NCBI RefSeq assembly: GCF_003334255.1
Contig: NZ_QOWU01000079.1
Strand: one strand, 5' to 3'
From: Escherichia coli
GTDB taxonomy: Bacteria > Pseudomonadota > Gammaproteobacteria > Enterobacterales > Enterobacteriaceae
DNA length: 14,611 bases
Position 1 is the first letter of the stretch; every line of letters begins with the position of its first letter. The position numbers were made by a program, and so were the translations under genes. The notes below the pieces were generated by a model, which worked only from the letters and a program-made list of their open reading frames with translations, was not told the DNA's origin and made no database searches. Positions 9,395 through 10,372 of the stretch are shown here, piece by piece.

Positions 9395-9439
9395 CGGAAT
9401 TGAGCAACACCCTAAATTTGGGTATTACCTCGTTAAAGA

Positions 9440-9459
9440 TACTGTATTTATGAACAGTG
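9440..9459. promoter_or_regulatory. SOS box (LexA operator) TACTGTATTTATGAACAGTG
   Basis: Matches the E. coli LexA consensus TACTGT(AT)4ACAGTA at CTGT-N8-ACAG with an AT-rich spacer; lies in the rusA-antirepressor intergenic region, 98 bp before the antirepressor ATG, next to a TTGATA -35-like hexamer (9465-9470). Confidence 0.7.
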
Positions 9460-9556
9460 TATCCTTGATAACTATTAAAAATCGCAGTAAGTTCATCCTG
9501 CATCAACGAAAAGGGAGTGCAGTCCCGCTCGTGGATAAAAATTTGTGGAGAAACCA

Positions 9557-10372
9557 ATGAATCAGTTGCTTGTAATTGATGGCGTTTCTGTGCGCCAGTA
9601 CTTCGAATCTAACTACTGTCTTAACGACCTTCAGAAAGCTGCTCTTCTTGCCGCTGGTGAGAATCGCTCCTCCCGTTCGCTGGAAGTTCACGAGTTTATG
9701 CGTCGTCCTGAAACGAAGGCTCTTGTGGAATTATTGGAAGAAGAAACTACGGGAGATTCCCGTAGTATTCCTGTCATCACCATTCAGGGGCGCAATGGTG
9801 GGACGTATGTCTGTAAAGAGCTGGTCTATGCATATGCAATGTGGATCAGCCCGGCATTCAGCTTAAAAGTGATACGTACTTTTGATGCGCTTCATAATTC
9901 ATCACCAGAAGAAACCACATCCGACAAAATTAAATCCGGGGTCATTCTGCTTGAATCAGCAGCAAAGACTCTAAATCTGTCAAACTCCTCGAAACTTGGT
10001 GCATACCAGAAATTATCAAAGGTAGCTGGTCTTCCTGAACTTATGCCGATCTATGCCATTGATGCACCTGCTGATGCGCCAGATGGTTCAAGCCGCCCTA
10101 CGCTGTCGCTGAGTGCACTGCTGAAGCAGTATGGTATCCGCCTGACGGCTAATCAGGCATATCACCAGATGGCGAAGCTGGGGATCGTTGAACAACGCGA
10201 ACGATACAGCCGTACCGCGATTAACAACATCAAAAAATTCTGGTCGCTGACAGCGAAAGGCTGCATGTTCGGCAAGAACATCACCAGTCCTGCAAATCCG
10301 CGCGAGACGCAGCCGCATTTCTTCGAATCCCGATTCCCTGAGCTGTTAAAGCTGCTCGATACCGTTCATTGA
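9557..10372 (+). CDS. KilA-N domain putative antirepressor (271 aa)
   Basis: ATG 9557 with GGAG 6 nt upstream (the track's 9545 start lacks an RBS); KilA-N-like block (GRNGGTYVCKELVYAYAMWISPAFSLKVIRTFDAL); SOS box upstream. Confidence 0.6.
   Translation: MNQLLVIDGVSVRQYFESNYCLNDLQKAALLAAGENRSSRSLEVHEFMRRPETKALVELLEEETTGDSRSIPVITIQGRNGGTYVCKELVYAYAMWISPAFSLKVIRTFDALHNSSPEETTSDKIKSGVILLESAAKTLNLSNSSKLGAYQKLSKVAGLPELMPIYAIDAPADAPDGSSRPTLSLSALLKQYGIRLTANQAYHQMAKLGIVEQRERYSRTAINNIKKFWSLTAKGCMFGKNITSPANPRETQPHFFESRFPELLKLLDTVH

Follow-up and report, generated by a model that had tools for sequence, protein, structure and literature searches.

What is a binding site for LexA, the repressor of the SOS response, doing inside a lambdoid prophage, just ahead of a gene for a KilA-N protein? 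The question is raised by a 14,611-nucleotide stretch of Escherichia coli DNA (contig NZ_QOWU01000079.1), called the window here, which is the early region of such a prophage. Between its RusA resolvase gene (rusA) and its KilA-N gene (kilA) there is a gap of 162 bp, and within this gap, at 9440-9459, lies a 20-mer close to the LexA consensus. A first-pass annotation of the window had taken the kilA product for an antirepressor under LexA control, one that would give the prophage a second SOS route besides cleavage of its own cI repressor.

We favour a different answer. On balance, the box is best explained as a genuine host-LexA operator on an auxiliary promoter of the nin region, with kilA expressed under SOS conditions and its product acting as a DNA-binding regulator of lytic development. 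As far as the DNA itself can tell, the KilA-N gene is probably turned on by DNA damage.

The LexA box and its promoter

The features on which the argument turns are the following.

8999-9394, plus strand: RusA resolvase gene (PHROG_34), followed by the 162-bp gap that holds the box
9440-9459: LexA (SOS) box TACTGTATTTATGAACAGTG, with CTGT-N8-ACAG intact
9465-9493, plus strand: predicted sigma-70 promoter (-35 TTGATA at 9465-9470, 17-bp spacer, -10 TAAGTT at 9488-9493, start near 9500)
9506-9532, plus strand: conserved hairpin in the 5' leader (ACGA..GGGA-GUGCAG-UCCC..UCGU)
9547-9550, plus strand: Shine-Dalgarno sequence GGAG, 6 nucleotides (nt) before the ATG; GGAGA is kept in relatives
9557-10372, plus strand: kilA, encoding a 271-residue protein (Pfam KilA-N; PHROG_129)
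10374-11369, plus strand: DUF968/HNH-like gene (PHROG_96), starting 1 nt after the kilA stop
11372-11779, plus strand: gene for a Q-type antiterminator (PHROG_79, 'anti-termination protein Q-like', E = 2e-48), its start 2 nt past the end of the DUF968 gene

The box reads CTGT ATTTATGA ACAG. Both arms are whole, and 16 of the 20 positions agree with the E. coli consensus TACTGTATATATATACAGTA; the annotated fit to the LexA operator is thus borne out. We scored the site with a heterology-index-type (HI-type) matrix, on which a low score marks a better site. The scores of this matrix, drawn up from 27 E. coli LexA sites, are approximate; proven sites span 2.1-11.8 on it. At 5.15 the box stands level with those of recA (5.11), dinI (5.15) and sulA (5.16). 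Published LexA boxes of Salmonella core genes range from 1.5 to about 12 (PMC8072944). When the window was shuffled 200 times, the best site in each shuffle had a median score of 13.9 and a minimum of 7.6. The third-best site in the window scores 14.4. CTGT-N8-ACAG occurs four times in the window against 0.14 expected from shuffling, with an A+T-rich spacer in two of the four. LexA very likely binds at 9440-9459, judging by the quality of the site. The sequence CACTGTGACGGATGACAGTG at 14177-14196 has the same outer arms as the kilA box; its spacer is G+C-rich and its LexA score is poor.

What might LexA control from this position? In a position-weight scan the promoter at 9465-9493 scores 11.7 bits, the top value in 9340-9600. 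Scores of at least 10 bits are reached at 12 of the 145,800 positions of the window, which puts an 11.7-bit promoter in roughly the top 0.01%. Because close relatives are about 99% identical throughout the region, conservation of the box among them is uninformative, and we used IMG/VR contigs and other genera instead. In diverged relatives from IMG/VR, Kluyvera, Leclercia and Kosakonia, whose N-terminal KilA-N half is about 50-75% identical, both hexamers persist, in the forms TTGAAA and TAATGT and at varying spacing, and the palindrome always ends 5 bp before the -35, as the box does in the window.

The leader hairpin is conserved as well. Across 13 distinct relatives 97% of cells are paired, both stems show compensating changes with three pairs altered on both sides, and the GUGCAG loop is invariant in 12 of the 13. 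Its covariation score is 0.324 against 0.127 +/- 0.029 for shuffled data, and none of 500 shuffles attains it. The folding energy by itself is unremarkable, and an Rfam search of 9350-9620 returned no family (best match E = 5). Where kilA directly follows rusA the hairpin is still present, overlapping the rusA stop codon.

Some minor features lie close by. Among E. coli carriers of the module, 42 genomes fall in a 95-99% identity band. The one copy of that band that was examined (L012, strain 2013C-3264), together with the 365-nt matches listed alongside it, has an 11-bp deletion at 9528-9538 that removes the 3' half of the hairpin's lower stem and leaves the LexA box and promoter intact. On the minus strand, terminator-like hairpins with T-runs are found at 9369-9390, overlapping the end of rusA, and at 9746-9766, inside kilA. 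We considered a minus-strand small RNA of about 110 nt that would run across the LexA box from a weak promoter (TTGATG-17-GATTTT, 9506-9478) to the hairpin at 9390-9369, and set it aside; none of these elements is conserved in relatives.

Box, sigma-70 promoter, 5' hairpin, Shine-Dalgarno sequence and KilA-N gene would together form a module of the nin region that works as follows. In an undamaged lysogen, LexA on the box, lying against the -35 and upstream-element region, would keep the promoter down. Upon DNA damage LexA would cleave itself, the promoter would fire without loss of cI or N antitermination, and KilA-N protein would be made. The same promoter probably also yields the DUF968 protein and some Q, because only 1-2 nt separate the genes and transcription meets no evident terminator on the way: a search of 9557-11779 found no convincing one, and the first strong terminator lies at 12168-12185. 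That LexA controls kilA is, on this showing, fairly likely. LexA-controlled prophage genes outside the immunity region have a precedent in the Gifsy phages (PMC3121763), and a survey of 86,548 prophages reports LexA boxes in prophage promoter regions (PMC12527982).

If LexA does gate the promoter, then lambdoid prophages in about 3% of complete E. coli genomes gain an SOS input to their late pathway (KilA-N, DUF968 and Q). Those concerned include Shigella serotype-converting phages and the prophages of O104:H4 outbreak strains. Cleavage comes more readily to LexA than to repressors of the lambda type, and for that reason the input would act before cI cleavage and independently of it. If true, such an input could shift the thresholds and timing of induction.

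How widely does the box accompany the gene? The site and the 5' part of kilA are 99-100% conserved in Shigella phage SfIV, in Escherichia phage PhiR49_1 and in 187 of 5426 complete E. coli genomes, O104:H4 outbreak strains included; HUSEC2011 and FDAARGOS_349 belong to this set. The box is the same or improved (position 20, G to A) in the 187 genomes, in SfIV and in about 40 IMG/VR contigs. Further afield we scored 22 non-redundant 200-nt regions upstream of homologues, some of them related by descent and so not all independent events: 6 contain a LexA-like site scoring 10 or less, compared with 0 of 366 control segments from the same loci, and at a threshold of 12 the figures are 9 of 22 and 1 of 366. 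SOS-type control looks real because of this enrichment. In one locus (L093) the palindrome overlaps a TTGCCC-17-TATATT promoter. The LexA-type operator is, to judge by these counts, a recurrent companion of this KilA-N gene family, and the window holds its best version. The gene order LexA_DNA_bind-RusA-KilA-N-DUF968-Q is retained in five of six other genera. Nature also supplies a promoter swap: in E. coli CFSAN004176 an IS600 element ends at the 5' end of kilA and replaces the whole box and promoter region.

Several observations weigh against LexA control of kilA. The first concerns geometry. The box spans about -60 to -41, with its centre about -50 from the predicted start. It lies in front of the gene, within the 162-bp gap, but upstream of the -35 of the best-scoring promoter and not over its -10 and +1; a site at about -50 is not a classic occluding site for LexA. 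Repression from there is what we infer, along with LexA occupancy, read-through into Q and the role of the KilA-N protein; what the sequences show is the quality of the box, the domains, the conserved hexamers and hairpin, and the enrichment of LexA-like sites ahead of homologues. The promoter is itself a prediction. Its -10, TAAGTT, matches the consensus at three of six positions, and a simple consensus scan of 9200-9700 does not list it. With either of two weaker candidates, TTGGGT-16-TACTGT (6.0 bits) and TTGAGC-17-TATTAC (7.1 bits), the box would come to lie over the -10/+1 or just past the start; both candidates sit in lineage-specific sequence.

The second concerns distribution. The full box is found only in the lineage of the window, SfIV and PhiR49_1. 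In Kluyvera, Leclercia and Kosakonia the palindrome has a right arm of ACAG or CCAG and a left arm of GTG in place of CTG, with scores of 11-14, and the Citrobacter and Cedecea loci have no LexA-like site. In SfII, Stx2a_1447, mEp460_4F5 and Ayreon kilA begins 19 nt after rusA, leaving neither gap nor box. These box-free relatives lack the intergenic region, and in them the gene therefore works as an ordinary member of the PR operon without LexA. Finally, a host would pay dearly for Q made under SOS from a prophage that is still repressed, a cost that points to weak output or to termination that we do not see, and we found in the literature no earlier account of the site or of the KilA-N protein, nor any binding or expression data on the site.

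Could LexA then bind here to no regulatory effect? The site would be a bystander on a mosaic module, and kilA would be transcribed only by read-through from PR. Its placement upstream of the -35, the confinement of the full box to one lineage and the many relatives without any promoter region all fit such a view, and LexA reportedly occupies sites without evident regulation elsewhere (Wade et al. 2005). Against it, a near-consensus 20-mer is very unlikely to persist by chance, unchanged or improved, in so many E. coli genomes and IMG/VR contigs. LexA-like sites are also enriched ahead of homologues in separate lineages, and the box abuts a conserved promoter. We regard a silent site as very unlikely and continue to read the box as an operator.

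The KilA-N protein and the antirepressor question

If kilA is expressed under SOS, what does its product do? The open reading frame (ORF) at 9557-10372 has a GGAG Shine-Dalgarno sequence, an ATG start and 271 codons for amino acids. Pfam KilA-N (PF04383) matches residues 10-114 of the protein at positions 8-106 of the 107-position model (E = 2e-15), in agreement with the earlier assignment, and it matches all 30 homologues checked. KilA-N is followed by a helical linker and, in an AlphaFold2 model (pLDDT 76.5), by a C-terminal domain at about 182-266 that is winged-helix-like. Foldseek comparison of the model with the PDB gave weak winged-helix matches to the C-terminal domain, none of them significant; by sequence and fold together the PDB offered no match below E = 0.1. 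The protein belongs to PHROG_129, named 'transcriptional regulator'. A search found 2727 homologues, and the names among those listed are only 'KilA-N domain-containing' or 'DNA-binding'. PADLOC reports a weak match to PDC-S22 in the KilA-N region.

The antirepressor label is not upheld by these searches. Pfam finds KilA-N alone in the protein and its 30 homologues, with no ANT/KilAC, Bro-N, P22_AR or AntA domain. For ANT/KilAC (PF03374) there is no match in the 271-residue protein even at E <= 10, and none in the 30 homologues. NCBIfam has no match to the protein. The profile search proposed in the annotation returned KilA-N and no Ant-type domain, and Pfam, PHROGs, NCBIfam and the PDB agree in showing no antirepressor family. 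We found no description in the literature of a function for this KilA-N subfamily or of LexA-like operators in it. By its domain content and its model, the KilA-N product is most likely a DNA-binding protein of two domains that regulates lytic development, and not a dedicated antirepressor.

The structure of the gene in relatives bears on the same question. Across E. coli and Shigella phages (loci L008-L011) the stretch from about residue 180 to residue 271 is nearly the same throughout, while the N-terminal KilA-N half has several versions of about 50-60% identity, which places a recombination junction within kilA. The window combines its KilA-N variant with its own cI, whereas SfIV and PhiR49_1 combine that variant with an unrelated repressor of the e14 YmfK type; conversely, this type of cI is found beside other variants of KilA-N. 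Variant and repressor type reassort freely, and hence there is no sign of a cognate repressor partner.

The annotation was accurate about cI itself. Pfam identifies HTH_3/HTH_26 and Peptidase_S24 (E = 9e-19), and the self-cleavage apparatus is present as Ala99-Gly100, Ser145 (GDSM) and Lys181 (YVKRL). The YmfK-type repressor of SfIV and PhiR49_1 likewise has QAG and GDSM motifs. The combination of a cleavable cI with an antirepressor had been called unusual, a description that precedents contradict: P22 Ant, Phi24B Ant (PMC3064807) and Fels-1 FsoA (PMC3121763) all stand alongside a cleavable repressor. These systems show that the two can coexist, with the antirepressor able to speed induction or cross-induce other prophages. 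They differ from the window in that they are controlled by phage repressors (Mnt/Arc, FsoR) and not by LexA, and in that they belong to the Ant/Bro or small-Gfo families and not to this KilA-N family.

The known LexA-controlled antirepressors, 186 Tum, N15 AntC, GfoA/GfhA of Gifsy-1/-3 and SPC32H Ant, belong to phages with non-cleavable repressors. The kilA locus resembles theirs in having a LexA box before a phage gene that lies outside the immunity region and could be expressed from a repressed prophage under SOS (PMC3121763, PMC8044961). It differs in several ways. With repressors that cannot be cleaved, those phages rely on the antirepressor, whereas the window's cI has an intact S24 apparatus. 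The 271-residue protein shares no similarity with any of theirs. Its box lies upstream of the -35, and most of its homologues are box-free.

Might the KilA-N protein nonetheless be a LexA-controlled antirepressor, one that binds and disables this cI or repressors made by co-resident prophages? Tum, GfoA/GfhA and AntC are characterised by just such control by LexA from a repressed prophage (PMC3121763, PMC8044961), the box is strong, and LexA-like sites recur upstream of homologues. Trans-acting antirepressors occur with cleavable repressors in Fels-1 (FsoA) and Phi24B (Ant), and a hypervariable N-terminal domain on a constant C-terminal half might suit a specificity domain. Against this stand the lack of similarity to antirepressor families in Pfam, PHROGs, NCBIfam and the PDB, two domains that both look DNA-binding, the free reassortment of KilA-N variants with repressor types, and the position of most homologues inside the PR operon, where without a box they are made only once the repressor is gone. 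The antirepressor and cross-induction idea currently draws its sole support from the position of the box. A second SOS route of this kind seems to us quite unlikely, and so does an antirepressor function of the 271-residue product in general.

A further parallel is with P1 KilA and HK022 Roi. The window's protein shares with them an N-terminal KilA-N fold predicted to bind DNA, a nin-region gene ahead of Q, and N- and C-terminal modules that are swapped; its C-terminal domain differs in not being KilA-C/ANT. Modular DNA-binding proteins of the KilA-N/Bro/Ant and Roi types from nin regions are said to have been described by Iyer, Koonin and Aravind in 2002 and by Clerget and Boccard in 1996. 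The kilA box marks a prophage accessory gene linked to LexA, and the arrangement varies themes already known.

The window contains a better antirepressor-like candidate, which did not figure in the first-pass annotation.

3293-3985, minus strand: cI repressor gene (helix-turn-helix and Peptidase_S24)
4336-4893: cII/YmfL-like gene
4890-6038, plus strand: long ORF with Ash and Rha domains
5250-5326: isrK (Rfam), inside the ORF at 4890-6038
5351-5438: C4 antisense RNA (Rfam), inside the same ORF

The ORF follows directly on the cII-like gene. Its product carries Ash and Phage_pRha domains and matches PHROG families named 'anti-repressor', and it stands behind the isrK and C4 RNAs. We take this layout to resemble the c4-icd-ant locus of P1 and the isrK-anrP locus of Gifsy-1. 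By its domains and RNAs the Ash/Rha ORF is a more conventional antirepressor candidate than the KilA-N protein, and it would be independent of SOS.

A second box inside cI and a truncated LexA homologue

Is the box at kilA the only link to LexA in this prophage? Two further features, likewise absent from the first-pass annotation, suggest that it is not.

3757-3776: second, stronger LexA box TACTGTATGTAAAAACAGTA (given on the cI-sense strand), inside the cI linker codons (amino acids 70-76)
8676-9002, plus strand: gene for a 108-residue truncated LexA homologue (Pfam), a DNA-binding domain without S24

The box inside cI matches the consensus at 17 of 20 positions and has an HI-type score of 3.24. 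SfII, Salmonella phage ST64B, two Klebsiella phages, Eeyore and Cronobacter phage ENT47670, the last with a cI 50% identical as a protein, all have it at this position in cI, even though the linker around the box is not conserved. Third-codon positions are invariant at 6 of 7 sites in the box, compared with 43 of 231 in the whole cI gene (P = 2.4e-4). The more distant S24 repressors and the YmfK type that we examined have no LexA box in cI, and an IMG/VR scan with the cI protein returned only copies 99-100% identical. This conservation makes it appear that LexA is tied into the repressor gene itself in this cI family. Because several phages with the box lack the truncated LexA homologue, the ligand is likely to be host LexA.

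What such a box would control is a harder question. A promoter on the sense strand within cI, TTTACC-17-TACTGT, is found in five of six homologues at 8.8-10.1 bits; the box would overlap its -10/+1, and the promoter would drive a C-terminal fragment of cI. It remains a weak candidate: its -35 falls on Phe-Thr codons that are themselves conserved, and the Cronobacter phage has lost it. We also considered e14 of K-12 as a model for the internal box and set it aside: the YmfK protein of e14 and the cI of SfIV are identical, and their repressor type is another one, in which there is no LexA box.

The truncated homologue offers another reading of both sites. Pfam LexA_DNA_bind covers its residues 1-65, all 65 positions of the model (E = 4e-19), and no S24 protease domain follows. 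It is 43% identical to the N-terminal domain of E. coli LexA. Its recognition helix is NAAVEHLR against NAAEEHLK in E. coli LexA, so that N41, A42, E45 and H46 are kept. The homologue occurs in 60 phage records (SfV, SfII, SfIV, mEp460, cdtI and Stx2a, Stx2c and Stx2k phages are examples) and is conserved ahead of rusA, both in many lambdoid phages and among the prophages of five other genera. We found no experimental work on lambdoid truncated LexA homologues in the literature.

A system outside the lambdoid phages provides a parallel. The gp6 protein of Bacillus phage GIL01, a tectivirus, shares 44% identity with the DNA-binding domain of host LexA; bound to a palindrome at -43.5, it activates the late promoter P3, which host LexA represses (PMC6182141). 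The likeness lies in a phage-encoded LexA DNA-binding domain standing alone, 43-44% identical to that of the host, and in a LexA-type palindrome beside the -35 of a promoter leading to late expression, which in the window is predicted from sequence. The differences are that GIL01 has no dedicated repressor whereas the window's phage has a lambda-type cI, and that the gp6 site differs from LexA boxes whereas the window's site is itself a canonical one.

Might the palindrome at kilA, then, be also or mainly a target of the phage's own truncated LexA? The homologue could activate the promoter toward Q, or close it again after LexA has gone. It is a complete LexA DNA-binding domain without the protease, encoded two genes upstream of kilA in a block of synteny held across genera. 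A site centred at about -50 fits an activator better than an occluding repressor; relatives hold the palindrome at exactly the same place with a left arm, GTG, that is poor for LexA; and gp6 does much the same in GIL01. Other observations speak against it. The usual positions of class I and class II activators do not include -50.5, where this site is centred. Helix and palindrome do not co-vary (L048 and L050 differ in the helix and share the palindrome), and homologues of the window's type also occur in SfII and Stx2a phages, which are without the site. Two loci (L082 and L085) keep the palindrome with no detectable homologue within 1.5 kb. We think this reading rather unlikely, and prefer host LexA as the ligand of the kilA box.

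A bolder proposal would combine the two. By analogy with GIL01, the lambdoid family to which the window belongs (Shigella serotype-converting phages, Stx2 phages and O104:H4 prophages are among its members) may run a two-LexA timing circuit layered on its lambda-type switch, with two operators and a takeover by the phage protein. Host LexA would hold 3757-3776 within cI and 9440-9459 by the promoter of kilA, DUF968 and Q. Once it had been cleaved, the phage LexA-domain protein might take over these sites together with host SOS boxes, fixing the lytic decision and timing Q. The box inside cI might gate a promoter whose product, a C-terminal piece of cI, would be dominant-negative; alternatively it might be a roadblock by which the level of cI is coupled to LexA. 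Such a circuit is speculative and, we judge, improbable as a whole. The pay-off would be larger than that of the kilA box, since a LexA box inside cI and a truncated phage LexA could extend the GIL01 paradigm to lambdoid phages.

Layout of the window

The remaining genes are as follows. The cro gene lies at 4083-4343, and replication genes and a Dam-like methylase gene stand between the Ash/Rha ORF and the LexA-domain gene. Homologues of the DUF968 gene product match PF06147 (DUF968) and, weakly, HNHc_6.

The segment from rusA to Q is 99% identical to SfIV and PhiR49_1. The cI-cro segment has a different set of relatives: mEp460, PhiR47_1 and phiSTEC1575-Stx2k match it at 99.4-99.8% identity, and SfII and the Stx2a_1447 phage at 92-96%. 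Because the two segments match different phages, the window is a mosaic of two known modules. Downstream of Q and of the terminator at 12168-12185, a full-length match to the small RNA family STnc100 (143 bits) occupies 12336-12541 on the plus strand.

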